This document shows positions 6,671 through 26,411 of a stretch of 64,000 nt of DNA, piece after piece. The stretch is from contig JAATGQ010000125.1 of NCBI GenBank assembly GCA_015654595.1, positions 1,209 to 65,208 on the forward strand, in the 5' to 3' direction. The notes beneath the pieces were generated by a model, which was not told the origin of the DNA, did no database searches, and worked only from the letters and a program-made list of their open reading frames with translations. How positions within the stretch are numbered: position 1 is the stretch's first letter; each line of letters opens with the position of its first letter. A program made the position numbers and the translations under genes. The stretch is from Chitinophagales bacterium (GTDB lineage Bacteria; Bacteroidota; Bacteroidia; Chitinophagales; Chitinophagaceae).

Positions 6671-6779
6671 GGCGCCATGTCAATCCATGGCATGACTTAT
6701 TCTGACATCCGCCCGCACCCAAATCAGCTTTTCTGCTGACGCATGTCAGTTCCCAGGCATCTCCGACGGACTACTTTTA
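6671..6779 (+). promoter_or_regulatory. Fnr/FixK-like box with phased half-sites and -7 promoter element of the YceI operon
   Basis: TGACGCATGTCA at 6737; half-sites in the same 22-bp phase at 6715 (..ATCA), 6693 (TGAC..) and 6671 (..GTCA); TACTTTTA starts 24 bp after the box end. Confidence 0.65.
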
Positions 6780-6821
6780 CTCCGCAATCAAGCAATACTT
6801 AACTAGTAAATAATCACTAAC

Positions 6822-7421
6822 ATGAACGCCAGGTTTTATCTGGCAGCCAGGAAAACAGCGTTTTTCCTGCTGTCCTTTCAATTCTTGTTCTCTTCCGTCA
6901 ACGCCCAAACCCGCTATGCAGGCAGCGCTGCCGATCTCACCGTCAACGGAACGTCGACGCTTCACAACTGGAGCATGAAGTCGGCGAAAGCAGATTGCAC
7001 AGCCCAGTTCGATTTCGCGCCTGGCGGCACCATCGCAGGGCTTCAATCGCTGATCTTTTCTACGCCGGTCAATTTTCTGAAGAGCGAGCATAGCAGTATG
7101 GATAATAATGCCTATAAGGCGCTGAAGACAGATAAGAACCCCACCATCGCTTTTACGATGAGCTCGGTACTGGTAACGCCAGCCGAAGGAGGCGCCAGCA
7201 CGGTTAAGTGCACAGGTAAGTTAACGATTGCCGGCGTTACAAAAGACGTCCAGCTTACTGCCTTGTGTAAACCCAACGCCGATAATACGATCACGGTCAC
7301 CGGATCGCAAACCATCAGTATGTCCGATTTCAAGATCGACCCGCCCACTTTTATGATGGGCACGATCAAGACAGGCAACAACGTAACCCTCGTCTATTCC
7401 ATGATCCTTAAAAAAGCCTGA
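6822..7421 (+). CDS. YceI family protein (periplasmic)
   Basis: Signal peptide; GTSTLHNW, MDNNAYKAL..NPTI, GKLTIAGVTK, MSDFKIDPP. Confidence 0.85.
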   Translation: MNARFYLAARKTAFFLLSFQFLFSSVNAQTRYAGSAADLTVNGTSTLHNWSMKSAKADCTAQFDFAPGGTIAGLQSLIFSTPVNFLKSEHSSMDNNAYKALKTDKNPTIAFTMSSVLVTPAEGGASTVKCTGKLTIAGVTKDVQLTALCKPNADNTITVTGSQTISMSDFKIDPPTFMMGTIKTGNNVTLVYSMILKKA

Positions 7422-7463
7422 CTCATCCAATAACAGAACTTTTACATTTTTCAATTTATTATC

Positions 7464-8798
7464 ATGAAAAAGAGTTTCCAAAACATCGCTTATTTATTGC
7501 TTATTCTTCTATCTGGTCTGGGCCCGGCTGTAGTCCGCGCCCAGGTCTTCCAGGGCAAGATCCCGGGTTTGAGACCTTATGACCAGAGCGGCATCAACTA
7601 CTTCGAAGCCAAAAAAGATACGGCGGCCTATGATGGCTTCAGATTCCGTGTCGGCGCAGGTTTTACGCAGGAATTCCAGAGCCTGAAAGACAAGAACAAC
7701 TTCAGCGAAGTAAGCACGAATCCTTTATATAAGCTGTCGCCGGGCTTTAACCAGGCAGAAGCGAATTTGTATACGGACTTCCTGCTGGCAGACGGTATAC
7801 ATTTGAATGTGACCCTGTATCTGTCGACCCGTCACCACAATGAAACCTGGGTAAAAGGCGGCTACCTGCAATTCGACAAGCTGCCCTTCAAAGGTGAGTT
7901 CTGGGATAATATCATGAAGTACACGACCATCAAGCTGGGACAGTTCGAGATCAACTACGGCGATGCGCACTTCCGCAGAACGGACGGTGGTCATGCACTG
8001 TTCAATCCCTTTATCGAAAACAACATCATAGACGCCTTTGCCACTGAGATCGGCGGTGAAGTCACCGTTCAGAATAAAGGGGTATTCGGGATGGTTGGCT
8101 TAACGAATGGTATGCTGGATGCCAGCATCGACTCGGTAGCGTATACTACGGCCAACGGCGCGATACATAAGAATCCTGCCATCTATTTCAAGGCAGGTGT
8201 GGACAAACAGGTGAACGACCTGGTAAGACTCCGGTTATCGGGATCCTTCTATCACCTCGCCAGCTCATCGAGCAGCGATTTGTACTGGGGTGACCGCGCG
8301 GGTTCCAGTTACTGGATGGTCATGGAAAAGCCCTATACGGTTCCGGCTAGCGGCGAGAGCGCCTATCAAGGCGACGCCTGGTCCGGCAGGGTCAACCCCG
8401 GCTTTACCTATAAAGTGGACGCCGGTATGCTGAATGGTTTTGCAAAAATTGGCGGATTCGAGTTGTTTGGCACGTACGAACACGCAGAAGGCCGCAGCAA
8501 GACAGAAAAAAGCAACCGTCATTTCAACCAGTACTCTGTAGATGGCGTCTATCGCTTCGGACCAAAGGAGAATTTCTTTGTGGGTGCTAAGTATAATTCT
8601 GTGACAGCATTGCTCAACGGGATCAACAACAGTATCACCGTCAATCGTGTGGCTGGCAGCGCAGGCTGGTTCCTTACAAAGAATATCCTGCTGAAAGGCG
8701 AATATGTCACCCAAAAGTATCTCGACTTCCCCACCTCTGATTACAGAAATTCGGGTAAGTTCTATGGTTATGTGATTGCGGCTACGGTTGGCTTCTAA
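7464..8798 (+). CDS. putative outer-membrane beta-barrel protein of unknown function
   Basis: Signal peptide, alternating amphipathic aromatic-rich strands, C-terminal beta-signal YGYVIAATVGF. Confidence 0.72.
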   Translation: MKKSFQNIAYLLLILLSGLGPAVVRAQVFQGKIPGLRPYDQSGINYFEAKKDTAAYDGFRFRVGAGFTQEFQSLKDKNNFSEVSTNPLYKLSPGFNQAEANLYTDFLLADGIHLNVTLYLSTRHHNETWVKGGYLQFDKLPFKGEFWDNIMKYTTIKLGQFEINYGDAHFRRTDGGHALFNPFIENNIIDAFATEIGGEVTVQNKGVFGMVGLTNGMLDASIDSVAYTTANGAIHKNPAIYFKAGVDKQVNDLVRLRLSGSFYHLASSSSSDLYWGDRAGSSYWMVMEKPYTVPASGESAYQGDAWSGRVNPGFTYKVDAGMLNGFAKIGGFELFGTYEHAEGRSKTEKSNRHFNQYSVDGVYRFGPKENFFVGAKYNSVTALLNGINNSITVNRVAGSAGWFLTKNILLKGEYVTQKYLDFPTSDYRNSGKFYGYVIAATVGF

Positions 8799-8841
8799 CC
8801 GGAAGACTTTCACCCGCGTATTCAAATAAAACCGATCCGTT

Positions 8842-9450
8842 ATGATCTCCAATATTTTTCTTCCATCCTTGTTGTGCCTCCTGGCTATCGCTCCAAATGC
8901 GGGAAAGGAAAAAAGCTGCTGGGTCGTAGAAAAGAGCAGCAGTCTTCAGATCGTTGGAAAGACGAATATAAGCAAGTGGTCTTGCGGAGTGGCGGAATAC
9001 GCGGAACCTGATACAATAACATTTTTTGACGAGGGATGCCGCGGACAGGTGCGCGGCATCCCTCTTTGCGGGATCGTGCGGATCAATATCGGAGACTTCG
9101 ACTGCCGCAATTCACTGATGACCGGCGAGTTCAAGAAAACGCTGCAGTATAAACAGTACCCCCAGCTGACGATCTCTTTTTTGAACCTCGACCGGATGCC
9201 CGACGCCGCGGTCAAAGGGGAGACCTTGAGCGGAGAAGTGATGATTGCGCTGGCAGGAGTTGCCAAAAAGGTGGTGATGCGGTATTCTTCTACAAGGGTC
9301 GATGCGACCACCATCGAGCTGACAGGCGAACAATCCTTTTGCTTTGCGGACTTCGGATTAACCCCGCCGCGGAAAATGGGCGGACTGATAAGGGTTTCCG
9401 AAGGGCTGGACGTCCGTTTCCTGCTTTGTTTACACCGAATAAATCATTGA
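8842..9450 (+). CDS. YceI family protein (second, Cys-rich)
   Basis: SSLQIVGKTN, MTGEFKKTL..YPQL, IALAGV, FADFGLTPP; signal peptide. Confidence 0.75.
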   Translation: MISNIFLPSLLCLLAIAPNAGKEKSCWVVEKSSSLQIVGKTNISKWSCGVAEYAEPDTITFFDEGCRGQVRGIPLCGIVRINIGDFDCRNSLMTGEFKKTLQYKQYPQLTISFLNLDRMPDAAVKGETLSGEVMIALAGVAKKVVMRYSSTRVDATTIELTGEQSFCFADFGLTPPRKMGGLIRVSEGLDVRFLLCLHRINH

Positions 9451-9485
9451 ATATCAGAAAAATGAATTCTATTTTAAACAAGACA

Positions 9486-9549
9486 TGATCAAGATCATAC
9501 CAGCGGCTGCTCGGGATCATGCCGATTGCCAGACATATAAATAATTTTG
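9486..9549 (+). promoter_or_regulatory. tandem Fnr/FixK-like boxes plus -7 element
   Basis: TGATCAAGATCA (9486) and TGCTCGGGATCA (9508), 22 bp apart; TAATTTTG at 9542. Confidence 0.7.
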
Positions 9550-9566
9550 TTATGGGAGTGTCTATT

Positions 9567-9935
9567 ATGGAATCAAGTTACGAGGTCAGGAATCACCTTA
9601 TCAGCCAGATACAGGAAGAGTTCAACAAGCTCTATCCCTATCTGAAAGTTGTGTTCCGCCAGCAGGGGAATAGCGCGAATGCCTTGCCTGTTACGGGACT
9701 GCACTCGGAAGAACAGATTCGTGATGGGGTCAGGAGTCTTTTGGAAAAAGACATTCACCTGATGGACGGTATGAAGGTCAGCGAGCTGGAAGATTCACTC
9801 GAACAGTTGTTTGGCCAGCGGGCCCAGGTTTTCCGCCGAAGCGGCAATTTCTGGATGGACACGCAGCTAAGCCGGGGCTGGACGCTCAAGCAGCAGAATG
9901 ATCATGGTCAGGACATTTCCTCGGGCTTTCTTTAG
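9567..9935 (+). CDS. conserved-looking small hypothetical protein
   Basis: ISQIQEEFNKLYPYLKV...VFRRSGNFW...WTLKQQN; start moved to ATG 9567 because the -7 box lies downstream of the track start. Confidence 0.7.
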   Translation: MESSYEVRNHLISQIQEEFNKLYPYLKVVFRQQGNSANALPVTGLHSEEQIRDGVRSLLEKDIHLMDGMKVSELEDSLEQLFGQRAQVFRRSGNFWMDTQLSRGWTLKQQNDHGQDISSGFL

Positions 9936-10054
9936 CCCCTGGGGGCGACTTCACTCTTGGGAAAGATAGTTTAAACATCCTTGTCGCCGGTTCAAATGAG
10001 TCCCCTCCCGATGACCGGAGGGGATTTTATGCGACACTTCTAAATTTTAAAAAC

Positions 10055-10876
10055 ATGAAAAAGATACTCTTTGTCTGTGCGGGCAACCATTTTCCGCAAG
10101 GCGCATTTCATTTTTTGCAAAGCATGCAGGAGCATAGCCCTGTAAGTGCCGATGGTTTGTTTTTTCCTCCTGCCGATCTGAAGGAAATGGCGGCTGTAAG
10201 CCAGGTCCCGGTCCTCGGGCCTTATGACCGGTTGAGGGAAAGGGAAAGAAGGACGGTGGATGAACACAAGGTTCAATTCAAGACGCGCTGCGAACAACAC
10301 GGCATCCGTTATCATATCCATCGCAACGATGAACAGTGGGATAAGGAGCTGTTGATTCGTGAAAGCCGTTTTGCAGACCTGATCCTTGTGAGCGGGGAAC
10401 TCTTTTGCGATGACCTGAGCTCACACCAGCCCAATGCCTTTCTGACCGAGGCCCTTCACTTTGCGGAATGCCCCGTTTTTGTCGTTCCGGAGAATTATGA
10501 ACATTGCCATCACCTGTATATGGCCTATGATGGAAGCAGGGAAAGCGTGTTTGCTATAAAGCAGTTTGCCGTCCTTTTCCCTTATCTGGCGGACTTGCCT
10601 GCGGAAGTCATTTATGTAAAAGACGAATCCTCGGAGTTGATCCCGGATCTGGAAAGACTCCGACATTATACAAAGGGGCATTTCGGCAGCCTGAATTTCA
10701 GCAAGCTGCATTTTAAGGCCGGTTCCAATTTTGCGGACTGGATCGAGGAAAAGCCGTATGCGATGCTGATCAGCGGCTCTTATGGCCGCAGCTCCCTGTC
10801 TTATCTGACAAAACGGAGTTTTGCGGGTGAAGTGATTGCCCGTCACAAGACGCCGGTGTTTGTCGCTCATCTCTAA
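10055..10876 (+). CDS. universal stress protein-like
   Basis: SRFADLILV, CPVFVVP, MAYDGS, GSYGRS, PVFVAH. Confidence 0.8.
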   Translation: MKKILFVCAGNHFPQGAFHFLQSMQEHSPVSADGLFFPPADLKEMAAVSQVPVLGPYDRLRERERRTVDEHKVQFKTRCEQHGIRYHIHRNDEQWDKELLIRESRFADLILVSGELFCDDLSSHQPNAFLTEALHFAECPVFVVPENYEHCHHLYMAYDGSRESVFAIKQFAVLFPYLADLPAEVIYVKDESSELIPDLERLRHYTKGHFGSLNFSKLHFKAGSNFADWIEEKPYAMLISGSYGRSSLSYLTKRSFAGEVIARHKTPVFVAHL

Positions 10877-10894
10877 CCTTATAATTTTTTTGTT

Positions 10895-11792: not shown

Positions 11793-13355
11793 ATGTTTAA
11801 GGAAAAATCAACCCATGTTCTTTTATTTTGTTCCATCGTTACGATAGCGTCTGCAGTCCTGCAGTACCTGAACCCGTCCATGAGTTTTTTTGACGGTGGG
11901 CTGATAACGGCCATCCTGCTGACCATTTTTTTAAACAAGGACGGATACACGCATCTCTTTGGCGCGATCAGCGCGATCCTGGTTCTGGTCGCCGCGTTTT
12001 ATCCACACGAGGGGATGGACAGACAGCAGGTCATCCTACAGCATTTATTCTCTTTGATCGTTGTCGTAATGGCAACGATCTTTGTATTATATGTAAAGCG
12101 GTTGTACCGCAATATCGAGTCCGATCAGCAGCAGGTAACCGCCCTGTTCGAGCACGCGACGGAAGGCATTATCCTGACCAATGACAAAGGCCAGATCATA
12201 CTTTTGAATCCTGCCGCCTACCGCCTTTTTGAATATGAGCAGAACGAGCTGCCCGGCAAATCTATCGATGTGCTGATCCCCCAACGTTTTCATCATTCTC
12301 ACGTCAGCGACAGGGAAGGTTTTTATAAACACCCCGGCAACCGTACGATGGGGCACGGCCGTGATCTTTTTGCCCGCAAGAAGGACGGCCATGAGTTCCC
12401 GGTCGAGGTCAGCCTCAGCTATTACCGCCAGAAGAATACGCTGTTTGTCATCGCCTTTGTCGTAGATATCACGCAGAGAAAACAGTCGGAAAAGGAGCTG
12501 CTGTCGAGACAGCAACAGCTGGAACGTATCTCCCTCGAGGTTCGGAAGATGAATACTGAACTGGAGACGAAGGTCGAACAGCGTACGCTCATCCTGAGAG
12601 AAGCATTAAAGGAACTGGAAAAGTCGCAGGAGGAATTGAGTGAAGCCCTCAGTAAGGAAAAAGAACTGAACGAGATAAAGTCCAGATTCGTCTCGATGGC
12701 ATCGCATGAGTTTCGCACGCCGCTGAGTACTATTCTTAGCAGCGCTGCCTTACTCGGAAAGTATACGCAGACCGAAGAGCAGGACAAACGCGACAGGCAT
12801 ATCCGACGGATAAAGGACTCGGTAAAACATCTCAACGACTTGCTGGAAGACTTCCTTTCCCTCGGTAGACTGGAAGAAGGCAAGATCATGGCCGATCCCA
12901 CGGTCTTTTCTGTAAAGGATTTTCTCGAAGAAGTGGAGGAAGAGATGCGGACGATCACGAAGCCCGGCCAGGAGATCCGCTGTCATTGCGTTGGAGAAGG
13001 CAGCTTTGTAAGCGACAAACGGCTGTTGAAAAATATCCTGATCAATCTGATCAGCAATGCCTCGAAGTTTTCTCCGGATGGGGCCGAGATCCGGCTGGAT
13101 GCCGATGTGACGGAGGCCGGCACGCTTCGGCTGTCCGTGAAGGACCAGGGGATTGGCATCTCGGAGGAAGATCAGCAGCATTTGTTCAGCAGCTTTTTCC
13201 GCGGCGGTAATGCGCTGAATATCGAAGGGACAGGGCTGGGGTTGCACATCGTCGCCCGTTACGCTCAGCTTCTCGGGGGAAATGTAAAACTGGAAAGCCG
13301 GCTGAATGAAGGGACGACGATTACGGTAGAGGTGCCGGCCGCACCAGGGGTGTGA
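11793..13355 (+). CDS. membrane-bound PAS sensor histidine kinase (FixL-like)
   Basis: N-terminal TMs, PAS (LIPQRFHHSH...MGHGRDLFARKKDG..FPVEVSL), coiled coil, SHEFRTPL H-box, NASKFS / DQGIG / GTGLGL ATPase boxes. Confidence 0.92.
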   Translation: MFKEKSTHVLLFCSIVTIASAVLQYLNPSMSFFDGGLITAILLTIFLNKDGYTHLFGAISAILVLVAAFYPHEGMDRQQVILQHLFSLIVVVMATIFVLYVKRLYRNIESDQQQVTALFEHATEGIILTNDKGQIILLNPAAYRLFEYEQNELPGKSIDVLIPQRFHHSHVSDREGFYKHPGNRTMGHGRDLFARKKDGHEFPVEVSLSYYRQKNTLFVIAFVVDITQRKQSEKELLSRQQQLERISLEVRKMNTELETKVEQRTLILREALKELEKSQEELSEALSKEKELNEIKSRFVSMASHEFRTPLSTILSSAALLGKYTQTEEQDKRDRHIRRIKDSVKHLNDLLEDFLSLGRLEEGKIMADPTVFSVKDFLEEVEEEMRTITKPGQEIRCHCVGEGSFVSDKRLLKNILINLISNASKFSPDGAEIRLDADVTEAGTLRLSVKDQGIGISEEDQQHLFSSFFRGGNALNIEGTGLGLHIVARYAQLLGGNVKLESRLNEGTTITVEVPAAPGV

Positions 13356-14065
13356 CGGCGATGAGAGCCTTCGATCACGGCCGTCCGGTGACAGTCGATC
13401 GCGGCCGAAGGATGATCCGGCAGCACCGGGCTGATGAAGGGAATACCAAGGTTGAGCCCGCGCAAAATAAGCAGCACTCCCATCGTAGCCAGAAAGTAAG
13501 GGATCGCCTTTCGCATTTTCACACGAAGCGATACAGACAGCCGATGACCGTACCAGGTAAGGGCCGCCAGCAGGGGCAGCGTTCCGAGTCCAAAACACAA
13601 CATAAATCCTACCGCGCGACCGGTATCCCCGGTACTCAGCGCTGCTGCCAATGCAAAGTAGACCATGCCGCAGGGCAGCAGTCCGTTAGCCATCCCCATA
13701 AAGAAGAACTTCCCCGGCATTTTTATCGTCCAGAGGCGATAGATAACGCGATTCAGCGGACCGGGCAGTATCAGGATCTTTGTAGAGCGCAGCAGGGTAA
13801 AGATCAATACGAATATCCCGGCAATGATAGACAGCTGCTGCTGCCATCCCGCCAGGTAGAGGCTATGTCCAAGCACCCCAAACAAAAGCCCGAGCAGCAT
13901 ATACGTCGCGAGCCGCGCAGCATGATAAGAAACCTGTGCCAGCACCCGGCCGGAGGACGACAGGTGTTGAACGGGCAGGGCCATCAGCAACGGCCCGCAC
14001 ATCCCCGCGCAGTGAAAGCTGCTCAGCAAACCAAGGGACAACGCCGACAGAAGAAGCGGAAACAT
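13265..14065 (-). CDS. sulfite exporter TauE/SafE / DsbD_2 family membrane protein (cbb3 assembly associated)
   Basis: SFHCAGMCGP and NGLLPCGMVY motifs; last gene of the cco run. Confidence 0.85.
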   Translation of the reverse strand: MFPLLLSALSLGLLSSFHCAGMCGPLLMALPVQHLSSSGRVLAQVSYHAARLATYMLLGLLFGVLGHSLYLAGWQQQLSIIAGIFVLIFTLLRSTKILILPGPLNRVIYRLWTIKMPGKFFFMGMANGLLPCGMVYFALAAALSTGDTGRAVGFMLCFGLGTLPLLAALTWYGHRLSVSLRVKMRKAIPYFLATMGVLLILRGLNLGIPFISPVLPDHPSAAIDCHRTAVIEGSHRRHTPGAAGTSTVIVVPSFSRLSSFTFPPRS

Positions 14066-14502
14066 TATCGCAGGTCAAAGCTTTGTTCGTTAAAATAATT
14101 TTTCCCTTCCGCCGTCCAGCTGATCTTTACGGTGTAATGACCGGGGGCCAGCAGGTTGGACGCAATGGTTTGTGCGCCGTCGGCGCCCAGGGTCAGCGGC
14201 ACTTGTCTGTCTTTGGCCTGGTTGGAAGCGCAGTAAAAGAAAACGGTCCCCGTCGTCGACTGCCGCTGCATCTCTGCGGGCAGGCGTAGGGTGATCGCGC
14301 CGTTTTCTTCACGCAGGGTGGCGGCACTGGAAAGGTTGTTGGCATTACGGGTGGCATCGATGACCTGCTGATAAGCCAGCTCCTGTTTGTAGTAGTCGCT
14401 GGCCACGAGGTCTACCGGGGTGTTGACGCAACGATAAACAAGATAGGAGATGCCCGAGGCAAAGACGATAAAGACGATAGTGAGTTTATATCCCCAGTTC
14501 AT
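14065..14502 (-). CDS. ccoH: FixH/CcoH family protein
   Basis: MNWG..TM..DLVASDYYKQELAYQ motif, after ccoG. Confidence 0.85.
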   Translation of the reverse strand: MNWGYKLTIVFIVFASGISYLVYRCVNTPVDLVASDYYKQELAYQQVIDATRNANNLSSAATLREENGAITLRLPAEMQRQSTTGTVFFYCASNQAKDRQVPLTLGADGAQTIASNLLAPGHYTVKISWTAEGKNYFNEQSFDLR

Positions 14503-14513
14503 GATAGTATGTT

Positions 14514-15956
14514 TTAGTTGTTATCGGCTATAGGACCCAAGAAGTTGGTACGGATATCATCTATCTTTTTACCATTTTCATAGAGCCCGATATGTAATAG
14601 GGTTTTACGCTGCCGGATGTTTTGTTTTGGAAGGATGATAAAGAAATTGCCGGCGCCTTCTTCTTCCTTTTTGACGATCACCGATGAGCCGCCGATGACC
14701 TGGACGGTACCGTTGTTGTCTTCCAGCCGGAGCTGCAGCGGAATATCACGGATCGTTTTGTTGGCTATTTTGACGGTATAAAGGTTGGAGACGCTGTCCT
14801 GTCCCCTTTCCTGGTAAAGCATTCCGGGTGTACGCATCACCGTAGTGTCGACGTCTTTGCGGCTTAGCAGCAGCGCCGCCAGCAGGATAAGCAGTATAGA
14901 AAGCAGACCGGTATAGAGTTTCATCCGCAGTGTGTAGCGCAAGGGTTCGGCGGTAGAAATGCCATTTTCGGAGGCGTAACGGATAAGCCCTGTGGGCCGT
15001 CCCGTCTTTTCCATCATATGGTTACAGGCGTCGATACAGGCCGTACAACCAACGCATTCCATCTGAACGCCATTCCGGATGTCGATCCCGGTCGGGCATA
15101 CTTTGACGCACTGAAAACAGTCGATACAGTCTCCTAGTTCGGCGGATTTTGTCTTACTGAATTTGCCCCTTGGTTCGCCGCGTTTGTAGTCGTAGGCGAC
15201 GATCATCGAGTTCCGGTCAAGCAATACGCTTTGAAGACGACCGTAAGGACATATGGCGGTACAGACCTGCTCGCGAAAGAAGGCGTATACGCCGTAGAAG
15301 ACACCGGAAAAGACGAGCATGGAAAGAAGTCCTCCGATATGTTCACTGACACGGCCGGTAATGATCCCACCCAGCTGTTTTACACCGATGATATAGGCCA
15401 GAAAGGTGTTGGCGATAATAAAGGATAAAAGATAGAAAGCAACGTGCTTGGTAGATTTGATCAGGATCTTTTTTGTGGTCCAGGGTGCGGCTTTGAGTTG
15501 TCTTTGCCGGGGAGCATCGCCTTCGATCAGGTATTCGACCTTGCGGAACAGCATCTCCATAAAGACGGTCTGCGGACAGACCCATCCACAGAAAAGACGG
15601 CCGAAGGCGGCGGTGAAGAGGATCACGAAGATGATAAACGTGACCATCGTCAGACCGAAGATAAAGAAGTCCTGAGGCCAGAAGATCTTCCCAAAGACAA
15701 TAAAATGGGCCGACGAGATATTAAACAGGAATAACGGCTGCCCATGAATATAGATAAAGGGCAGTGCAAAGAACAGAAGAAAGAATCCTCCGCTGATCCA
15801 GCTGCGCATGTTATACCACTTGCCGTCGGGCTTCTGTGCAAAGACCCATTTGCGACGACCGCTGTTGTCGAGGGTGGCCAGGTGATCGCGAAAGGACTGG
15901 CCGGCAGCGGCGCTGCTGCCGAGGCTGCTGTTTTGAGCGGAAGATTCTTCTTTCAT
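14514..15956 (-). CDS. ccoG: cytochrome c oxidase accessory protein CcoG (4Fe-4S)
   Basis: GRLFCGWVCPQT, CPYGRLQ, CIDCFQCVKVCPTGIDIR, CVGCTACIDAC. Confidence 0.95.
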   Translation of the reverse strand: MKEESSAQNSSLGSSAAAGQSFRDHLATLDNSGRRKWVFAQKPDGKWYNMRSWISGGFFLLFFALPFIYIHGQPLFLFNISSAHFIVFGKIFWPQDFFIFGLTMVTFIIFVILFTAAFGRLFCGWVCPQTVFMEMLFRKVEYLIEGDAPRQRQLKAAPWTTKKILIKSTKHVAFYLLSFIIANTFLAYIIGVKQLGGIITGRVSEHIGGLLSMLVFSGVFYGVYAFFREQVCTAICPYGRLQSVLLDRNSMIVAYDYKRGEPRGKFSKTKSAELGDCIDCFQCVKVCPTGIDIRNGVQMECVGCTACIDACNHMMEKTGRPTGLIRYASENGISTAEPLRYTLRMKLYTGLLSILLILLAALLLSRKDVDTTVMRTPGMLYQERGQDSVSNLYTVKIANKTIRDIPLQLRLEDNNGTVQVIGGSSVIVKKEEEGAGNFFIILPKQNIRQRKTLLHIGLYENGKKIDDIRTNFLGPIADNN

Positions 15957-15960
15957 ATTC

Positions 15961-17133
15961 TTATTTGGATAGCGTCCCCTGAGGCGCTTTTGCGTTATCA
16001 GGATTGGTACCGTGCAGGGATTTCACATAACTGGCGATCTGTTGTATCTGGGATGGCGAAAAATCGTCTTTCCAGCTTTTCATGCCTTTGTCGGGCCAGC
16101 CATATTTTATCGTTTTAAAAACGTCCTGTATACTTCCGCCATGGAGCCAGTAGTCGTCGGTGAGGTTGGGACCTACCCCGCCCTCTCCGTGTTTGCCATG
16201 ACAGGCAAAGCAGATGCTTTCGAAGACGGTTTTTCCGGCGGCAAGACTTGCGGGATCGGTCAACAGTTTGACGGTAGTTTCGTCGACATTGTTGGCGGCT
16301 TTCTTGAGGTAGTCGGCCTTTGCCTGCTGGGCTTTCTGTACGGAGATCGCGTATTCTTCTGCACTAAGCGGCGCGGTGTGCCCGATATGATAGCGATAAA
16401 GATATATACAGGCAAAGATGATGGTGCAGTAGAAGCCATAGATCCACCATGGGGGCAGACGGTTGTCGAGCTCCCGGATGCCGTCATAGTCGTGGCCGAG
16501 GAGGATGTCTTTCTCTTGTTCGATGGGCTTGAAGCTGTTCACCTTATCCCAAAGGGTAACGGTTGGTTTTGCAGCAACAAGGGCAGCAGCGGCGGTCTTC
16601 TTTTTCTTTGCGATGAGTTTGCGCAGGTTGTAGAGCAGCCCCAGCACGATCAGAACTTCGAGGAAGATCACGCCGGTGATCACATAGAAAGCGGTGTCGG
16701 AGAGGCCATTGACGTTGGAGGTCACGACGCCGGCGGTCACGGTCGATGCGTCCGATCCGGCTGAAGCGTGGCCTGCATCTGTTGACTGGGCAGCAACTGG
16801 GCTGCTGATCAGCATCGTAGCAGCGATGATGATCCCGGCGATCAGCGTGGCGGCGGGCGGAAACCCCGTCGATGGGTTGGATGCGGCGGCAGGACCGCTG
16901 GCTATTAGGCTGCCTGCCCTGGCGGAAGCGTCGGCAGCAGGGCCGTTTTCGCTGGCGCGGCCCGGCTTTTCGGGAGCGCCAGGGCCATCGTCCCCTTCGG
17001 GATTGCCAAGCCTGTATTGGGCCGCGCCAAGAACCACGTTTGCGAGCAGGATAATGGCCAGCGCCAGGATCAGGATGACGACGATCATCATCACGACGAA
17101 TGAATTATCGGTGGAAGAAGGTACTGGTGGCAT
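15961..17133 (-). CDS. ccoP: cbb3-type cytochrome c oxidase subunit III (mono-heme, N-terminally extended)
   Basis: HDYDGIRELDNRLPPWW and a single CFACH heme motif, GPNLTDDYWLHGG. Confidence 0.92.
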   Translation of the reverse strand: MPPVPSSTDNSFVVMMIVVILILALAIILLANVVLGAAQYRLGNPEGDDGPGAPEKPGRASENGPAADASARAGSLIASGPAAASNPSTGFPPAATLIAGIIIAATMLISSPVAAQSTDAGHASAGSDASTVTAGVVTSNVNGLSDTAFYVITGVIFLEVLIVLGLLYNLRKLIAKKKKTAAAALVAAKPTVTLWDKVNSFKPIEQEKDILLGHDYDGIRELDNRLPPWWIYGFYCTIIFACIYLYRYHIGHTAPLSAEEYAISVQKAQQAKADYLKKAANNVDETTVKLLTDPASLAAGKTVFESICFACHGKHGEGGVGPNLTDDYWLHGGSIQDVFKTIKYGWPDKGMKSWKDDFSPSQIQQIASYVKSLHGTNPDNAKAPQGTLSK

Positions 17134-17149
17134 ATTACTATTTTTGGGG

Positions 17150-17320
17150 TTAGGCGTTGTCTTTTGTCAAAGGAATGTTCCGTATCTCTTCGATCATTCC
17201 GCGGTCTGCTTTAATGGTCCAGATAAGCATCACGAGGAAGATAGTGCCGAACAGCAGCAGGGAAGAGAGCCCATAGATACTGACGCCGCTGATCTTTTCG
17301 ATATAGTTGATAAATTTCAT
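17150..17320 (-). CDS. ccoQ: cbb3-type oxidase subunit CcoQ-like small membrane protein (56 aa)
   Basis: Manual translation MKFINYIEKISGVSIYGLSSLLLFGTIFLVMLIWTIKADRGMIEEIRNIPLTKDNA, one TM, between ccoNO and ccoP; below the track cut-off. Confidence 0.82.
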   Translation of the reverse strand: MKFINYIEKISGVSIYGLSSLLLFGTIFLVMLIWTIKADRGMIEEIRNIPLTKDNA

Positions 17321-17333
17321 GTGCGTTGTTTTG

Positions 17334-19490
17334 TTAGTTACCCATTACGGATGTTCCGTCTTTTGCCGCGGTCTGATCTTTTGGCGCCAGCTTTATATCC
17401 TTGCCAAGGCGTTGCAGATAAGCGATCAGCGCTACGATCTCCTTTGTATCGGGAGTACTGATCTTATCGCCCTTCAGGGAAGCCTTTATGCTGTCTGCCT
17501 GTTTGAGCAGGTCGTGGTTGGCTTGCAGCGCATAGTTATCGGGATAAGGCACACCCAGCTTCTGCATCGCATGGATCATAGACTCAGTGCGGTTGGTGTC
17601 GATGTTGTCATCGAACAGCCAGTTGTAAGAAGGCATGATCGAACCGGGTGACATGGAAGGAGGATCAAGCAGGTGGTTGTAGTGCCAGCTGTCGGGATAC
17701 TTCCCGCCTACCCTCGCCAGATCGGGTCCTGTTCTTTTTGATCCCCATTGAAAAGGATGGTCGTAGACAAATTCACCGGCTTTGGAGTACTCGCCATAGC
17801 GGGCTACTTCGTCTCGGAAAGGACGTACCATCTGGGAGTGACAGAGGTAGCAGCCTTCGCGGATGTAGATATCACGACCATGCAATTCCAGTGGGGTGTA
17901 GGGTTTTACGCTACTGATGGTAGGAATATTGGATTTAACGAGGAAGGTTGGTATCATTTCGATCAAACCGCCGATGGCAACCGCAATAAGGCTGAATACA
18001 AGCATTTGCAGCGGACGTCTTTCGATCCAGCGGTGCCAGTAGGTCTTGCCGTGTGTTTCGGTCTCTGCTTCAGCAGCCGGCGCCTGTGCCAGTTCGTTGG
18101 CGGTGAAGTAACCTTGTTTTATCGTCTTGTGAAGGTTATACGCCATTACAAATACACCGGACAGATAGAGTGCGCCGCCGATGCTTCGGGTGACATACAT
18201 CGGGATAATATGTGTCACCGTCTCGAGGAACTGGAACTTCAGCTGTCCTTCTTCGGTAAAGCTCTTCCACATCATGCTTTGAGTGAATCCCGCCCAGTAT
18301 AGCGGTACAGTGTAAAGCACGATACCGATAGTCCCGATCCAGAAGTGAGTAGTGGCGAGCTTTTTCGAGTACAGCGGCGTATTCCACATTTTTGGGATCA
18401 GGTAGTAGAGCACGCTGAAGGTCAGGAAGCCATTCCATCCCAGGGCGCCGACGTGTACGTGTGCGATGGTCCAGTCGGTAAAGTGAGAGATGGTGTTGAC
18501 GCTTTTAAGACTGAGCATGGGTCCTTCAAAAGTGGCCATGCCATAGCAGGTGATCGCGACGACCATAAACTTGAGCACGGGATCTTCTTTTACTTTATCC
18601 CATGCGCCGCGGAGGGTAAAGAGACCGTTTAGCATACCGCCCCAGCTAGGCGCCAGCAGCATGATAGAGAATACGACACCCAGCGACTGCGCCCAGTCGG
18701 GCAATGCGGTGTATAGCAAATGGTGAGGCCCTGCCCATATATAGATAAAGATAAGCGCCCAGAAGTGAATGATGGAAAGCCGATAGGAGTAGATCGGCCG
18801 ATTGGCGGCCTTTGGCAGGAAGTAGTACATCAGACCCAAATAGGGAGTGGTCAGGAAGAACGCAACGGCGTTATGGCCATACCACCATTGCACAAGCGCA
18901 TCCTGAACGCCGGCATACCAGCTATAGCTTTTCCAGAAAGAAACGGGCAATTCGATAGAGTTAACAATATGCAGCATCGCTACGGTGACCCAGGTGGCGA
19001 TATAAAACCAGATGGCGACATAGATATGCTTCTCGCGCCGTTGAAGGATGGTTCCGAACATATTAATGCCAAAGACGACCCATACAAGGGTGATGGCGAT
19101 ATCTAGCGGCCATTCCAGTTCGGCATATTCCTTACCTGTCGTCTTTCCCGCCCAAAGGGTGATGGCGCCAACGATGATGATCAGCTGCCAACCCCAGAAA
19201 TGGATAGCACTCAGGGTATTGCTGAACATCCTGGTCTTACAGAGTCTTTGCAGGGAATAGTAGACGCCCATAAAGATACCGTTACCCACAAAGGCAAAGA
19301 TCACGGCGTTGGTATGAACGGGGCGCATCCGGCCAAAGGTGGTGGCGGGGATACCCAGGTTCATAGACGGATAGTAGAGAGCAACGGCCGCCCACAGACC
19401 GGCGAGCATGCCGATGATGCCCCAGAAGACAACGGCGTAGGCAAATCGTTTAACCGTTTTGTTGTCGTAATAAAATTGTTCGAGTTGCAT
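17334..19490 (-). CDS. ccoN: cbb3-type cytochrome c oxidase subunit I/II fusion (CcoNO)
   Basis: QWWYGHNAVAFFLT, WAGPHH, HVHVGALGW, then EGCYLCHSQMVRP and WGSKRTGPDL; start at MQLEQ. Confidence 0.97.
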   Translation of the reverse strand: MQLEQFYYDNKTVKRFAYAVVFWGIIGMLAGLWAAVALYYPSMNLGIPATTFGRMRPVHTNAVIFAFVGNGIFMGVYYSLQRLCKTRMFSNTLSAIHFWGWQLIIIVGAITLWAGKTTGKEYAELEWPLDIAITLVWVVFGINMFGTILQRREKHIYVAIWFYIATWVTVAMLHIVNSIELPVSFWKSYSWYAGVQDALVQWWYGHNAVAFFLTTPYLGLMYYFLPKAANRPIYSYRLSIIHFWALIFIYIWAGPHHLLYTALPDWAQSLGVVFSIMLLAPSWGGMLNGLFTLRGAWDKVKEDPVLKFMVVAITCYGMATFEGPMLSLKSVNTISHFTDWTIAHVHVGALGWNGFLTFSVLYYLIPKMWNTPLYSKKLATTHFWIGTIGIVLYTVPLYWAGFTQSMMWKSFTEEGQLKFQFLETVTHIIPMYVTRSIGGALYLSGVFVMAYNLHKTIKQGYFTANELAQAPAAEAETETHGKTYWHRWIERRPLQMLVFSLIAVAIGGLIEMIPTFLVKSNIPTISSVKPYTPLELHGRDIYIREGCYLCHSQMVRPFRDEVARYGEYSKAGEFVYDHPFQWGSKRTGPDLARVGGKYPDSWHYNHLLDPPSMSPGSIMPSYNWLFDDNIDTNRTESMIHAMQKLGVPYPDNYALQANHDLLKQADSIKASLKGDKISTPDTKEIVALIAYLQRLGKDIKLAPKDQTAAKDGTSVMGN

Positions 19491-19501
19491 ATTGGGGTAT
19501 T

Positions 19502-19678
19502 TCAATTTTTATGAAGGTGTTCCGGATCTGTGATGAGTGGAGGGTCGTCGAATAAGATCCGTTGGGGTGGCGAAAAGCCGTCGTCATATTGTCTGTTCCT
19601 GACATTCCAGATAAATAACCCGAGGAAGACAAGGGCTACGGAGAGACTGGCTATCAGCAGGATGATGAGGACACTCAT
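19502..19678 (-). CDS. ccoS: cbb3-type oxidase assembly protein CcoS (58 aa)
   Basis: Manual translation MSVLIILLIASLSVALVFLGLFIWNVRNRQYDDGFSPPQRILFDD...; QYDD and RILFDD motifs. Confidence 0.9.
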   Translation of the reverse strand: MSVLIILLIASLSVALVFLGLFIWNVRNRQYDDGFSPPQRILFDDPPLITDPEHLHKN

Positions 19679-19706: not shown

Positions 19707-19771
19707 CAAAAGTATCGGGCGGCGGCGGAGCGCTGGATGACAGGGATCAAGGGAAAAACTGATTTTTCTCA
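19707..19771 (-). promoter_or_regulatory. tandem Fnr/FixK-like boxes plus -7 element of ccoS-ccoNO
   Basis: TGACAGGGATCA (19738) and TGATTTTTCTCA (19760), 22 bp apart; minus-strand TACTTTTG begins at 19714, 24 bp from the proximal box. Confidence 0.75.
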
Positions 19772-22339
19772 TTTTTGGGCTGTCGCGCTTGATCTGAGGC
19801 GCTTGCCGGATACATCAGGCGTGGCTGGTTTCGCCGATTTCCGCAGCAGCAGGCGTCCGGCCAATCCTGAACAGCTATAGGTAAGCAGCAATATGCTCAA
19901 TGAGCTTGCGGGCATCAGTATAGCGGCGACCAGCGGCGAAAGCTCGCCTCTGACGGCAAATGAAAGCCCCACGATATTGTATAGTATCGACACGATAAAG
20001 CTGGCCAGGATAATACGGTGTCCGGACCGGCAGAGCCGGATAAAAGCCGGCAGCTGCCATAGCTGACGCTCATTGAGGATGACGTCACTGGCAGGTGTGA
20101 AAGTGTTGTTGTCGGAAGAAAGCGCTATACCGACATTGCTCTGTCGCAGCGCACCGGCGTCGTTGAGGCCATCGCCTATAAACAGCACTTGTTTACCCGC
20201 GGCCTGCAGCTGGCTGATGTACCTCTCCTTGTCTGCGGGGGATTGATGAAAGAGGAGTTCAGCGTCGGGTCCGAATATTTCCTTCAGCCGCTGCTTTTCC
20301 CGGTCGGTATCTCCCGACAAAACGGAACAAGGCATGGGGAGTCGGCAGACTAGTTCGCCAATCCCCTCCCGGTAGTGGTTAGCGTAACGGAAGACGCCTT
20401 TATACTTCCCATCGATGGCGATGTGAACCGCCTGCCGGGAGTCGGGGTTGCCGGTGATAAAGGCTGAAGACCCGAGCCGGATATGATGGCCGGAGAAATA
20501 TCCCTCCAGACCTTTGCCGGGGATCTCCAGAAAATGGCTGACCGGGCCTTCGGGCTTTCCAGTAAAGAAAGCCGCCAACGCCTTACTATGCGGGTGAAGG
20601 GATTGGGATGCGATCGCAGCGATCGCATTTTTATCTTCGGGCGAAAGCGGCTTTCCTTCGAAGAAGATATCGGCCTTGGCGGAATCGGTAAGGGTTCCGG
20701 TTTTGTCAAAGACGATATGCGTCGTGGCAGCAATGCGCTCGATCGTCGGCGCGTTGCGCAGATAACATTGGTTCCTGGAAAGGATACGCAGCAGATTGCC
20801 ATTTGTAAAGGTTGTCGACAACAGCAGCGCACAGGGGCAGGCCACGATCAGCACGGCAGTGACGGCCGAGGCGATACGGGCAGGGTCATGAAAAGCCCAG
20901 AAGACGGCAGTCAGCGCGGCTATCGTAAAAAGTACATACGTAAAGTAGCGGCTCAGAATGTCAGAGGACGTGAGTGCAAAAGGCGAGCGCGCCGGCGCGG
21001 ACGCTCGCAGCCTGGTAGTTTGCGTGCTGGCGCTGGATGCTGTCTCTGATAGGGATGGCCGCAACGGCGCGGCTGGTGCGGGCTTCTCCTGCCGGTCCCA
21101 CAGCTGCGTCAGATAACTCTGCACCACTTCTTTGACGACAAGCACCTCTATCGACGAACCGGTCTGCCGGCCGCCGGCATACACCAGCTCGCCTATCTCC
21201 CGGGCAACAGGCGCCGATTCCCCGGTCACAAAACTATAGTCGATCAACGCCTTTCCGCGGGTAAGGATGCCATCGGCCGGGATCAGCTCGCCGTTATGGA
21301 TAAGGAGCGTGTCGCCTGACCGGATATCGGGGAGCGCCTTTACGGTTGGACCGGGCACGCCAACGCGCGATGAATCAGCGGCTGGCGCGACAATACTCAC
21401 AGCCATCGGAAAATAGGCCGTATAATCCCGCTCGAAAGAAAGCTGTCGGTAAGTCTTATCCTGCAACACACGACCGGCCAGCATAAAGAATACGATCCCG
21501 CTCATCGAGTCGAAATAACCCGACCCTGTTCCGGACAGCACCTCCCAGACGCTGCGGGAAAAAGTGACCCAGATGGCCAGCACGATGGGCGCATCGATAT
21601 TCAACAGCCCGCGGCGAAGACTGCCCCAGGCCGAACGATAAAATGGTATCGAGCTATAAAATAAAATGGGCAATGCCAGCACAAAACTGATATACCGAAA
21701 AGCCGTCTGCAGCGCCTTATCGGAAGCATCGGAACTGACCTTAAGTCCCAGGTATTCGGGAAAACACAGCAGCATGATATTGCCAAAACAGAATCCGGCT
21801 ACACCCAGCTGATAGACCATGGACCTGGACAGGCCGGGACGGCTTTGCCCCAGATCATGAAGACTGATATAAGGTTCATAGCCCAGACTGGCAAGGAGCT
21901 CTACGACCTGCCTCAGACTTATCTGCTGCTGGCGGAAGACAACAGATATTTTTTTGGCGGTAAAATCGATACGTGACGCTATCACGCCAGGCTCCAGCCG
22001 ATGAAGGTTTTCCAGCAGATAAAGACAGGAGCTGCAATGGATCTGTGGGAGGTAAAGCGTTGTATGGGTCTCTGTCTCATTTTTAAAGGACACCAGCGCC
22101 GTATTCATTTTTTCCTCGTCGAGAAACGCAAATTTATCCTTGCGGACCGAAAGACGGAGATTGATACCGGGATGATCATTCAGCTGGTAGTATTGGCATA
22201 GACCTCTTTCATCCAGCAGCTGATAAACCATCCGGCATCCCTGACAGCAAAACGATTTGTCGTCTAGCCAAATATCGTCTGTCGGGCAGGGTTCTCCGCA
22301 ATGCGTACAAAGGAGCGCTGATTCGGTAAGAGTTTCCAT
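19769..22339 (-). CDS. ccoI: heavy-metal (Cu) P1B-type ATPase CcoI/FixI
   Basis: CxHCG..CCxGC N-terminal domain, HCSSC HMA domain, TGES, CPC, DKTGT, GDGLND. Confidence 0.93.
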   Translation of the reverse strand: METLTESALLCTHCGEPCPTDDIWLDDKSFCCQGCRMVYQLLDERGLCQYYQLNDHPGINLRLSVRKDKFAFLDEEKMNTALVSFKNETETHTTLYLPQIHCSSCLYLLENLHRLEPGVIASRIDFTAKKISVVFRQQQISLRQVVELLASLGYEPYISLHDLGQSRPGLSRSMVYQLGVAGFCFGNIMLLCFPEYLGLKVSSDASDKALQTAFRYISFVLALPILFYSSIPFYRSAWGSLRRGLLNIDAPIVLAIWVTFSRSVWEVLSGTGSGYFDSMSGIVFFMLAGRVLQDKTYRQLSFERDYTAYFPMAVSIVAPAADSSRVGVPGPTVKALPDIRSGDTLLIHNGELIPADGILTRGKALIDYSFVTGESAPVAREIGELVYAGGRQTGSSIEVLVVKEVVQSYLTQLWDRQEKPAPAAPLRPSLSETASSASTQTTRLRASAPARSPFALTSSDILSRYFTYVLFTIAALTAVFWAFHDPARIASAVTAVLIVACPCALLLSTTFTNGNLLRILSRNQCYLRNAPTIERIAATTHIVFDKTGTLTDSAKADIFFEGKPLSPEDKNAIAAIASQSLHPHSKALAAFFTGKPEGPVSHFLEIPGKGLEGYFSGHHIRLGSSAFITGNPDSRQAVHIAIDGKYKGVFRYANHYREGIGELVCRLPMPCSVLSGDTDREKQRLKEIFGPDAELLFHQSPADKERYISQLQAAGKQVLFIGDGLNDAGALRQSNVGIALSSDNNTFTPASDVILNERQLWQLPAFIRLCRSGHRIILASFIVSILYNIVGLSFAVRGELSPLVAAILMPASSLSILLLTYSCSGLAGRLLLRKSAKPATPDVSGKRLRSSATAQK

Positions 22340-22356
22340 GTGCGTCGAATAATGCG

Positions 22357-22421
22357 GCAAAGTAGCCCGTGTGGTTAATACGGGGCCTGACCGTTATCAG
22401 GGAAATTTATGATCCTGGTCA
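22357..22421 (-). promoter_or_regulatory. tandem Fnr/FixK-like boxes plus -7-like element of ccoI (divergent from the regulator)
   Basis: TGACCGTTATCA (22388) and TGATCCTGGTCA (22410), 22 bp apart; minus-strand TACTTTGC begins at 22364, 24 bp away. Confidence 0.75.
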
Positions 22422-22490
22422 ACCTGTAGGGTGAATTATATTGTTTACAATTGCGGATCAATTACCTTTGATTACTTAAACAGTTATTCC

Positions 22491-23531: not shown

Positions 23532-23561
23532 AAATGGCCCGGAGTATTCCGGGCCATTTTT
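23531..23561. terminator. bidirectional rho-independent terminator
   Basis: AAAATGGCCCGGA-GTAT-TCCGGGCCATTTTT between convergent genes. Confidence 0.85.
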
Positions 23562-23571
23562 CACCGGCCCC

Positions 23572-24876: not shown

Positions 24877-24915
24877 AAGAATATTTTTATGATGAGATAT
24901 TTTTATTTATAAGGA

Positions 24916-26331
24916 TCAGATCGCGTTGCTAAAAAGGGGCTTGCTGATTCCCGTAAGGGTTGCTTTTCCGCAAAGCGTTGGGTTTTCTGTACGGGCTTCT
25001 TCATCGCGAAGCAGGCGCAGATCAAAGGCTTTGCAGCAGTGACGCAGAAAGGGGCGGCCTGCTTCCGTCAGCGAAACGCCGTTGTTGTCGAGATGGACCA
25101 GCCCATCTTTTTCCAGATCACGAAGACGAGGCAGCGTATAGCGCTGGAGCACACCGGACCAGCGTTCGTCAAACCGGGTATATCCTTTACAGGCGATGTC
25201 GAGAATATGCTGGCGGAAGACAAGGTCTTCCTGTGACAGGAAATAATTCTTTGCTATAGCTAAATGTCCTTCGTTGACCGAGCGATAATAGCCGGTAATG
25301 CTCTTGTCGTTCTGCGCAAAGGCTGAGCCGATATCACTGATCGCGGATACGCCAAGGCCGATCAGCAGACCGCTGTTCTGTGTCGTATAACCCATAAAGT
25401 TCCGATGGAGGCGGCCGGTTCCCGCGGCCTTGAACAACTCGTCACCCGGCAGCGCAAAGTGATCCATGCCGATGTTGGCATAGCCGTTACTGGTAAAGAG
25501 TTCTTTTCCCAGCAGGTAAAGATCCAGCTTCCCGGAAGCGGTTGGCAGCTGCGACTCATCGATGAGACGCTGCGAGCAGTTGATCCAGGGGGTGTGGGCA
25601 TAGCTGTAAAAGGCGATGCGGTCGGGGCGAAGGCTGAGGATCTGGGTGATGGTGTGGAGAAGTCTGGCAGCTGTCTGGGCTGGCAGACCATAAACAATAT
25701 CAAAATTGACTGCCGTAAAGCCGGCCCTTCTTGCGGCGTCGGTTGCGCGCCGCAGGTCTTCAAAGGACTGTATACGGTGGATAGCCTGCTGAACTTCCGG
25801 GTTCAGATCCTGGACGCCATAGCTGATCCGGCGAAATCCCAGGCGGTACAGGGTTTCGAGGTGTGCGGGACTTGTATTGGAAGGATGACCTTCGATGCTG
25901 AAAGAATGATCAGGATGAACGATCGCATCTTTCAGGATGGAAGACAACATCCTCTCCAGGTTTGCAGGGCTAAAGAAGGTCGGAGTACCACCCCCCAGAT
26001 GTATCTCGCGGATAACCGGGGGTTGGGACTCCATCATTTCTGTGTACATACTCCATTCCTTCTGAATGGCGCGAACGTATTCTTCTTCGACTTTATGGTT
26101 GGCAGTGATCTTTTTGTTGCAGCCGCAATAGATGCAAAGCGATTCGCAAAAGGGCAGGTGGATATAAAGGCTGATGCCTTCTGTTTCGTTTTTTATCCGA
26201 AACATATCGCTAAAATTCTTCTTCCAACGGCCCGGGTTGGGTTGGTCGTTCCAAAACGGAACGGTCGGATAGCTGGTGTAGCGTGGAACCGGCTGGTTGT
26301 ATTTGAGCAGAAGGCTGTCTGTGTTGATCAC
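24916..26331 (-). CDS. hemN: oxygen-independent coproporphyrinogen III oxidase
   Basis: PRYTSYPT, CESLCIYCGC radical-SAM motif, GGGTPT, RNFMGY; GTG start chosen downstream of the -7 box. Confidence 0.93.
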   Translation of the reverse strand: MINTDSLLLKYNQPVPRYTSYPTVPFWNDQPNPGRWKKNFSDMFRIKNETEGISLYIHLPFCESLCIYCGCNKKITANHKVEEEYVRAIQKEWSMYTEMMESQPPVIREIHLGGGTPTFFSPANLERMLSSILKDAIVHPDHSFSIEGHPSNTSPAHLETLYRLGFRRISYGVQDLNPEVQQAIHRIQSFEDLRRATDAARRAGFTAVNFDIVYGLPAQTAARLLHTITQILSLRPDRIAFYSYAHTPWINCSQRLIDESQLPTASGKLDLYLLGKELFTSNGYANIGMDHFALPGDELFKAAGTGRLHRNFMGYTTQNSGLLIGLGVSAISDIGSAFAQNDKSITGYYRSVNEGHLAIAKNYFLSQEDLVFRQHILDIACKGYTRFDERWSGVLQRYTLPRLRDLEKDGLVHLDNNGVSLTEAGRPFLRHCCKAFDLRLLRDEEARTENPTLCGKATLTGISKPLFSNAI

Positions 26332-26346
26332 TGGAAAAAAATTTCT

Positions 26347-26411
26347 CAAAAGTAACTTCCATGACAGGCGTGGGAAATGATGCACATCACCCCTAAAAAT
26401 GATTTCGATCA
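26347..26411 (-). promoter_or_regulatory. tandem Fnr/FixK-like boxes plus -7 element of hemN
   Basis: TGATGCACATCA (26378) and TGATTTCGATCA (26400), 22 bp apart; minus-strand TACTTTTG begins at 26354, 24 bp away. Confidence 0.78.

Follow-up and report, generated by a model that had tools for sequence, protein, structure and literature searches.

What controls a cluster of low-oxygen genes in a member of the Bacteroidota? The cluster in question includes genes for a cbb3 oxidase and for the oxygen-independent coproporphyrinogen III oxidase HemN. It lies in a stretch of 64,000 nucleotides (nt) from a Chitinophagales bacterium (assembly GCA_015654595.1, contig JAATGQ010000125.1, positions 1,209 to 65,208), and we refer to the whole of this 64-kb stretch as the window. 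The genome (G000) is 87% complete and its closest named relatives are Puia spp. of the Chitinophagaceae. We found no oxygen regulator of aerobic Bacteroidota in the literature that we searched, which lacks most subscription papers. An earlier note on this DNA had described pairs of TGAY-N4-RTCA boxes, 22 base pairs (bp) apart, at five promoters of the cluster, and had proposed that two dimers of a regulator bind there.

We found that the pairs have a rigid spacing and a fixed distance to the promoter, and that they recur upstream of orthologous genes in relatives. From this geometry, the genes that it precedes and the domains of the proteins encoded nearby, we infer that two dimers of receiver-Crp, a Crp/Fnr protein with a fused receiver domain that is encoded in the cluster, likely bind the pair in a cooperative manner and, as oxygen becomes scarce, likely act as activators of transcription. 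We give this reading a probability of about two in three.

Paired boxes in the window

The window contains 13 exact TGAY-N4-RTCA boxes. Two exact pairs are present (22388/22410 and 26378/26400), with box starts 22 bp apart, and two more pairs with the same spacing (9486/9508 and 19738/19760) carry a single mismatch in one box each. That is, the four pairs described earlier are there, two exact and two with one mismatch. The chance expectation in the window is ~0.05 exact-plus-one-mismatch pairs per spacing, compared to the four observed at 22. At the fifth promoter, that of yceI, the box at 6737 is exact and its partner at 6715 has two mismatches.

TAnnTTTG is the housekeeping -7 box of the Bacteroidota. 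The distance from the proximal box to this element was 23 nt at four of the five promoters and 22 nt at the one with box 9508, in agreement with the fixed distance reported before (the earlier value of 23-24 is an end-to-start count). All five promoters were seen, and there is also a sixth, that of the regulator's own gene, which shares its pair with the divergent ccoI (Table 1). Among the 11 loci examined, -7-like boxes flank this shared pair in the window and in six relatives; the other four have no clean pair there. The arrangement suggests that the receiver-Crp gene is positively autoregulated.

We also scanned G000 with a weight matrix (threshold, 20 bits) that had been derived from 80 other loci. 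There were 12 matches above 20 bits in the genome and none in the reversed genome; the window holds six of the top nine. Exact pairs at spacings from 12 to 60 numbered five in G000, three of them at 22.

An exact single box (9899-9910) lies inside the 3' end of the gene for a 122-amino-acid protein. Scans gave no partner for it and no -7 element at 23 nt, and it is probably there by chance.

Conservation of the pair

For conservation we used 1.23 Mb from 80 Chitinophagaceae loci that had been selected through the regulator protein. At a spacing of 22 there were 39 exact pairs, and no other spacing between 12 and 70 gave more than two. When one mismatch was allowed, the count at 22 rose to 115 pairs, 107 of them intergenic, and stayed at six or fewer at each of the other spacings. 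Counts in 41 whole genomes, with reversed sequence as the control, gave 105 exact pairs at 22, spread over 26 genomes, and none in the control; the 20 spacings from 23 to 42 summed to 73. The two sites are thus two helical turns apart, as had been proposed, and the scan of the genome and its relatives that the earlier note had called for found pairs far above background and conserved upstream of orthologs.

Counting in both directions from the 115 sites, we found 81 occurrences of TAnnTTT at 23 nt, four at 22 nt and one at 24 nt. Strict -7 boxes were present on both sides at 15 of the sites. An exact proximal box with a -7 element at 23 nt marked 65 promoters, and 55 of these had a distal box (two mismatches or fewer) at 22. 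At the same 65 promoters, distal boxes at 21, 23, 33 and 44 were found in only 1, 1, 0 and 0 cases.

The unit is a pair and not an array, because a spacing of 44 gave only two pairs in the 80 loci (33 gave one), as against 115 at 22. This rules out a phased array or filament. Nor does it support the longer phased array that had been read at the yceI promoter, where the half-sites at 6715, 6693 and 6671 have two, four and three mismatches. Exact triples were found in 2 of 251 genomes (G046 and G258).

Both boxes of the pair share the same logo (115-site set). A single mismatch was in the distal box at 22 sites and in the proximal box at 33; two mismatches, with the other box exact, were in the distal box at 7 and in the proximal box at 17, so the proximal box was more often imperfect. 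The outer T at -1 was present at 34% of 112 pair sites. Single boxes from Flavobacteriaceae had T at +1 in 94% of 35 cases compared to 53% of the 112 pair sites, a difference confounded by AT content (75% versus 58%). Cooperativity is favoured because mismatches fall on either box, the spacing tolerates no slip of one base, and single boxes have tighter flanks.

A different element recurs in G004, G008, G010, G011 and G019 (49-bp matches). Its two boxes are 37 bp apart, have inner CAC...GTG flanks and are closer to the E. coli CRP site; it is possibly the site of another Crp paralog. Four exact pairs in G103 are each a copy of one short tandem repeat; repeats of this kind are a class of false positive for motif scans.

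Position relative to the promoter

In Flavobacterium psychrophilum, TAnnTTTG occupies -12 to -5 (PMC9723704). If this offset applies here, the 23-nt distance would place the proximal box at -47 to -36 (centre ~-41.5) and the distal box at -69 to -58 (centre ~-63.5). The class II position of Crp is -41.5, and motif peaks in E. coli are at -41.5, -61.5 and -93.5 (PMC5957442). The activator had been proposed to overlap the -33 region. Its position near the -7 element is indeed fixed, but the proximal box would map to -41.5 and would not itself cover -33.

The proximal site, if centred at ~-41.5, would match class II and class III promoters of E. coli Crp and FNR, whereas the second site here, which would lie at ~-63.5, abuts the first directly. 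The pair also differs from an E. coli-type class III arrangement: the centres are 22 bp apart with a 10-bp spacer, and abutting dimers are said to leave the C-terminal domain of the RNA polymerase alpha subunit no room between them (PMC2844151). We found no regulon-wide abutting pair in the literature searched.

The candidate binder

Receiver-Crp belongs to the Crp/Fnr superfamily (Pfam PF00027 and PF13545; model matches to CRP, GlxR and FNR). Its receiver is fused at the N-terminus, with a complete set of phospho-site residues (D8, D9, D52, T82 and K104); FixK, by comparison, is a stand-alone, Cys-less Crp with a separate response regulator. In an alignment, the recognition helix reads ESLIR where FNR has ETISR: the E and R are kept and the S is not. 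The S of the FNR helix reads the outer T of the site. The boxes have the TGAY-N4-RTCA core of the FNR/FixK site, TTGAT-N4-ATCAA, and the outer T/A are not conserved. The earlier label of Fnr/FixK-type site thus fits the kind of regulon and the core, but not the outer positions. In FNR, four conserved Cys hold a [4Fe-4S] cluster (PMC2908626); the sole Cys of receiver-Crp is C51, in the receiver.

A draw across the phylum comprised 61 genomes with this Crp type and 189 without. Exact pairs were found in 25 of the 61 compared to 5 of the 189, two of the five looking like repeats, and kin among these genomes are not independent. Receiver-Crp had been named before as the likely binder. These results agree, and we consider it likely that it binds the paired boxes.

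A predicted haem-binding kinase

The best matches to the PAS domain of the kinase encoded at 11793 include FixL and DosP. H170 aligns with their haem His and was present in 73 of 76 rows (the other three were gaps); R184, aligned with the distal Arg of FixL, was present in 67 of 76. We take the aligned His to be the haem ligand, and the role of the distal Arg is likewise assumed. The architecture is that of FixL (a PAS domain with proximal His and distal Arg, then a His kinase). The NCBIfam FixL equivalog was not among the 25 matches listed for this kinase, and therefore we call it FixL-like and not a FixL ortholog. Its gene adjoins that of receiver-Crp in 69 of 106 loci, and it likely feeds receiver-Crp.

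A second, very similar haem-PAS kinase (G000:C17:1613-2629) is followed by a pair (C17:2700). A third (G000:C60:22587-25784) has two further Crp genes and a receiver-like open reading frame as neighbours.

Pairs and single boxes across lineages

In the Flavobacteriaceae, a box 23 nt before TAnnTTTG was found in 113 of 121 genomes. Exact pairs were found in seven of the 121 (21 in G507, two in G527 and one each in five others). Receiver-Crp is encoded in 63 of the 121, and a distal box was present at 0 of 13 promoters of their cco loci. Pairs also adjoin receiver-less, Cys-bearing Crp proteins, and many genomes that have this box encode both the Cys-type and the receiver-type protein. Because there are pairs without a receiver and receivers without pairs, the receiver is neither necessary nor sufficient for the pair. 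The pair is a lineage trait. G507 (C1) and G527 are sister Flavobacteriaceae that keep pairs in a single-box family. The trees were quick ones (one IQ-TREE, and one FastTree with midpoint root that excluded 19 locus ids with redundant or long rows and four outgroup rows), and for this reason we claim no evolutionary order of events.

Three causes of the pair were tried and rejected. Receiver-receiver contacts as a general cause fail on the same pairs without receivers and receivers without pairs. Residues K184 and D193, as a dimer-dimer contact, had the top scores (0.86 and 0.83, compared to 0.56 for the crossed control) and then failed out of sample: the receiver-Crp proteins of pair-bearing G507 and G527 have E184 (their Cys-type Crp has K184/N193), single-box G576 has K184, and G513 and G560 have D193. 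The alpha subunit of RNA polymerase had no column that separates 8 pair from 6 single-box genomes, and its linker length was equal.

At two loci in Flavobacterium (L211 in G090 and L212 in G061), receiver-Crp and the kinase cluster with those of family f20. Pairs lie near the receiver-Crp gene, and the genome's own cco cluster has single boxes. Regulator and kinase were probably transferred together with their promoters. The pairs there may be a donor relic, and so we did not count these loci as cases of the geometry travelling with the regulator.

Genes downstream of the pairs

In relatives, the genes 3' of pairs were ccoS/NO (16 loci), ccoI and hemN, and those for an Rrf2-family regulator, a cytochrome c lipoprotein, RIC/YtfE, Hsp20, Usp and YceI. 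The targets of FnrL likewise include ccoNOQP, hemN and usp (PMC2908626). In F. psychrophilum, cbb3 and haem genes are strongly induced under oxygen limitation (PMC9723704).

The cytochrome c gene behind pairs is the head of clade II nosZ operons. The first locus sets, which are mostly Chitinophagaceae, contained 19 cytochrome c/nosZ loci, and 14 of these had a pair (one mismatch or fewer) upstream; 12 of the 14 have nosZ in view. Across the class, the best 30 of 70 nosZ matches gave 9 with a pair, 4 with a single or partial site and 17 with none (reversed control, 1 of 60). No nosZ match was found in G000, at 87% completeness. Metagenomic scaffolds have Rrf2 and Crp/Fnr genes beside nosZ, with no site described in the available part of that paper, and little is known about the control of denitrification outside the Proteobacteria (PMC6264515). 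Since the motif marks 14 of the 19 loci and 13 of the 30, control of a greenhouse-gas (nitrous oxide, N2O) sink becomes directly testable. More generally, the motif offers a rule, based on sequence only, by which the low-oxygen regulon of Bacteroidota from soil and water can be read.

The other matrix sites in G000 precede what we take, from the translations, to be an aldehyde dehydrogenase-like gene and a NiFe hydrogenase cluster. A one-mismatch pair (G000:C242:20886-20919, L231) lies between the NiFe hydrogenase operon and hyp-like genes; the NiFe hydrogenase gene was present in 2 of 61 genomes searched. The cbb3 clusters of families f40, f41, f45 and f50 (L118-L127 and L110-L117) have no promoter-placed pair and, at E 1e-21, no Crp of this type. 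They may be under different or constitutive control.

Proposed mechanism and alternatives

We propose that the haem-PAS kinase would sense oxygen and phosphorylate D52 of receiver-Crp. The proximal dimer, at ~-41.5, would contact RNA polymerase as a class II activator, and the abutting dimer, at ~-63.5, would stabilise it by dimer-dimer contact. Given such contact, the 34-bp palindrome would be one unit, able to serve the divergent ccoI and regulator promoters. The regulator's own gene would be among the targets, making a positive loop. A bolder version is somewhat less likely than not. In it, an obligate dimer-of-dimers activator, switched through phosphorylation by the haem kinase (in sister proteins, by an Fe-S cluster), would read the 34-bp bipartite palindrome and, as a single complex, could fire two divergent promoters. 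It would be the low-oxygen master regulator of the Chitinophagales and of allied Bacteroidota and would also control many operons for clade II N2O reductase; most Flavobacteriaceae would have reduced the pair to a single-dimer site.

Several points weigh against two receiver-Crp dimers as the explanation. Flavobacteriaceae with receiver-Crp mostly have single boxes, four genomes with pairs (G027, G078, G121 and G173) have only receiver-less Crp matches, and every protein feature tried as an explanation of the pair failed testing. Besides receiver-Crp and the kinase at 11793, G000 encodes four Crp proteins, one of which has the helix ETLSR, similar to that of FNR, and two haem-PAS kinases. In the window, the kinase sits 9 kb from the regulator. 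The 17 nosZ loci without a site show no box within ~1.4 kb. Finally, at whiB1 of Mycobacterium tuberculosis, abutting CRP dimers 21 bp apart inhibit and do not activate (PMC2844151).

It is unlikely that the two dimers instead bind independently, each touching RNA polymerase in class III-like synergy, with polymerase geometry setting the 22 bp. In its favour, there is precedent for tandem activation of the class III kind (PMC5957442), the two boxes each lie at a rigid distance from the -7 element, and the pair goes with host lineage more closely than with the type of regulator. However, the lack of room for the alpha subunit between abutting dimers, the -7 boxes on both sides of 15 of the 115 pairs and the alpha subunits that do not separate pair from single-box genomes all speak against independent binding, as does the tolerance of a weak proximal box where the distal box is exact.

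Somewhat less probable again is that another or a second protein (another Crp or a heteromeric partner) occupies one or both boxes, with receiver-Crp as one input only. The four other Crp proteins of G000, the coexistence of Cys-type and receiver-type Crp with the same box, and a switch between pair and single box that so far lacks an explanation would fit such a protein. The common logo of the two boxes does not, nor does the finding that in 7 of 11 close loci the shared pair immediately precedes the receiver-Crp gene. In families without this Crp type, moreover, cco clusters have no promoter-placed pair (e.g., 8 of 8 f40 loci).

We regard as improbable a scheme with the same parts in which the kinase senses nitric oxide, carbon monoxide or redox state and not oxygen. 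Haem-PAS domains can bind several gases, and in relatives the regulon has an Rrf2-family regulator, the RIC/YtfE di-iron protein and NosZ. Against this, cbb3 oxidase and hemN form the core of the regulon in G000, where no nosZ match was found at the present completeness of the genome, and the Arg aligned with the distal Arg of FixL is largely kept, its role being presumed. Least of all do we expect a whiB1-like device, in which one box activates, filling the second damps and output peaks at intermediate signal: tandem CRP sites 21 bp apart do have opposite effects at whiB1 (PMC2844151), but here it is the proximal box that would occupy the class II position of an activator and that single-box lineages have retained, and the distal box is as strong.

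Comparison with known systems

The FixL-FixJ-FixK cascade and the FnrL/FixK regulons of alpha-proteobacteria share with the window a FixL-type haem-PAS kinase, a Crp/Fnr output and the TGAY-N4-RTCA core. In contrast, receiver and Crp are here one polypeptide, the outer T/A are not conserved, the pair is rigid and the promoter has the Bacteroidota -7 element. The nearest geometry in the literature searched is that of M. tuberculosis CRP (Rv3676), which also has two Crp-family sites on one helix face at whiB1, where filling one helps the other (PMC2844151). That case differs in its spacing (21 bp, at -58.5/-37.5) and in being a single promoter where the second site represses, whereas here the spacing is 22 bp at most promoters of the regulon. 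If our reading is true, a rigid abutting pair at -41.5/-63.5 would activate transcription from an arrangement for which whiB1 would lead one to expect inhibition.

A further related system is the Cys-bearing Crp/Fnr protein encoded beside ccoI in Flavobacteriaceae and some Chitinophagales and Cytophagales, with a near-identical helix (GTATES/T.IR), the same box and the same 23 nt. It has an N-terminal CxxC instead of a receiver, and most Flavobacteriaceae have a single box. We found no experimental paper on it in the literature searched. With pairs in some members and single boxes in others, one family provides a natural experiment on gain or loss of cooperativity. In PMC8510549, as far as available, Bacteroidota Crp homologs are treated as MalR-like carbon sensors, with no such motif. 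Our searches of the same literature turned up neither the motif pair nor receiver-Crp, in line with the earlier note, which knew of no description of the double-box geometry. Known parts (a FixK/Fnr-type, probably class II regulon) occur here in an unusual rigid geometry that, going by this literature, is apparently unpublished.

Features of the cluster

Table 1. Promoter elements and genes of the cluster, in window coordinates (mismatches are to TGAY-N4-RTCA)
Feature	Coordinates	Strand	Details or basis
yceI promoter	6715..6779	+	distal 6715-6726 (2 mismatches), proximal 6737-6748 (exact), -7 TACTTTTA 6772-6779; 26.2 bits
Promoter of 122-amino-acid gene/Usp-like genes	9486..9549	+	distal 9486-9497 (exact), proximal 9508-9519 (1 mismatch), -7 TAATTTTG 9542-9549; 31.7 bits
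ccoS/NO promoter	19707..19771	-	distal 19760-19771 (1 mismatch), proximal 19738-19749 (exact), -7 TACTTTTG 19714-19707; 43.5 bits
Shared ccoI/receiver-Crp promoter region	22357..22453	both directions	exact pair 22388-22399 and 22410-22421; 33.9 and 23.7 bits
ccoI -7 element TACTTTGC	22364-22357	-	23 nt from shared pair
Receiver-Crp -7 variant TACAATTG	22446-22453	+	24 nt from shared pair
hemN promoter	26347..26411	-	exact pair, distal 26400-26411, proximal 26378-26389; -7 TACTTTTG 26354-26347; 37.5 bits
yceI	6822-7421	+	Pfam
Putative porin	7464-8798	+	lead from an atlas match
Putative second YceI-like gene	8842-9450	+	no Pfam match
Conserved hypothetical, 122 amino acids	9567-9935	+	homologs adjoin a pair in 8 loci
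Usp-like gene	10055-10876	+	likeness to Usp-like neighbours
Usp-like gene	10895-11719	+	Pfam Usp
PAS-HisKA-HATPase sensor kinase, predicted haem-binding	11793..13355	+	FixL/DosP-like PAS, H170, R184
cbb3 oxidase operon	13265..19678	-	Pfam; ccoS, ccoNO, ccoP, ccoG, ccoH, membrane protein
Membrane protein of cbb3 operon	13265-14065	-	
Fused ccoNO	17334-19490	-	Pfam
ccoS (name presumed from gene order)	19502-19678	-	reading of open reading frame
ccoI, P-type metal ATPase	19769..22339	-	Pfam
Receiver-cNMP-HTH Crp/Fnr regulator, 346 amino acids	22491..23531	+	D52 phospho-site, helix GTATESLIR, one Cys only
hemN, oxygen-independent coproporphyrinogen III oxidase	24916..26331	-	TIGR00538 above cut-off

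The trio of yceI, porin and YceI-like genes also adjoins receiver-Crp in another locus (L155). An atlas look-up gave no named family for the 122-amino-acid protein. Its gene is kept near the regulator in many Chitinophagaceae, mostly adjoining a pair.

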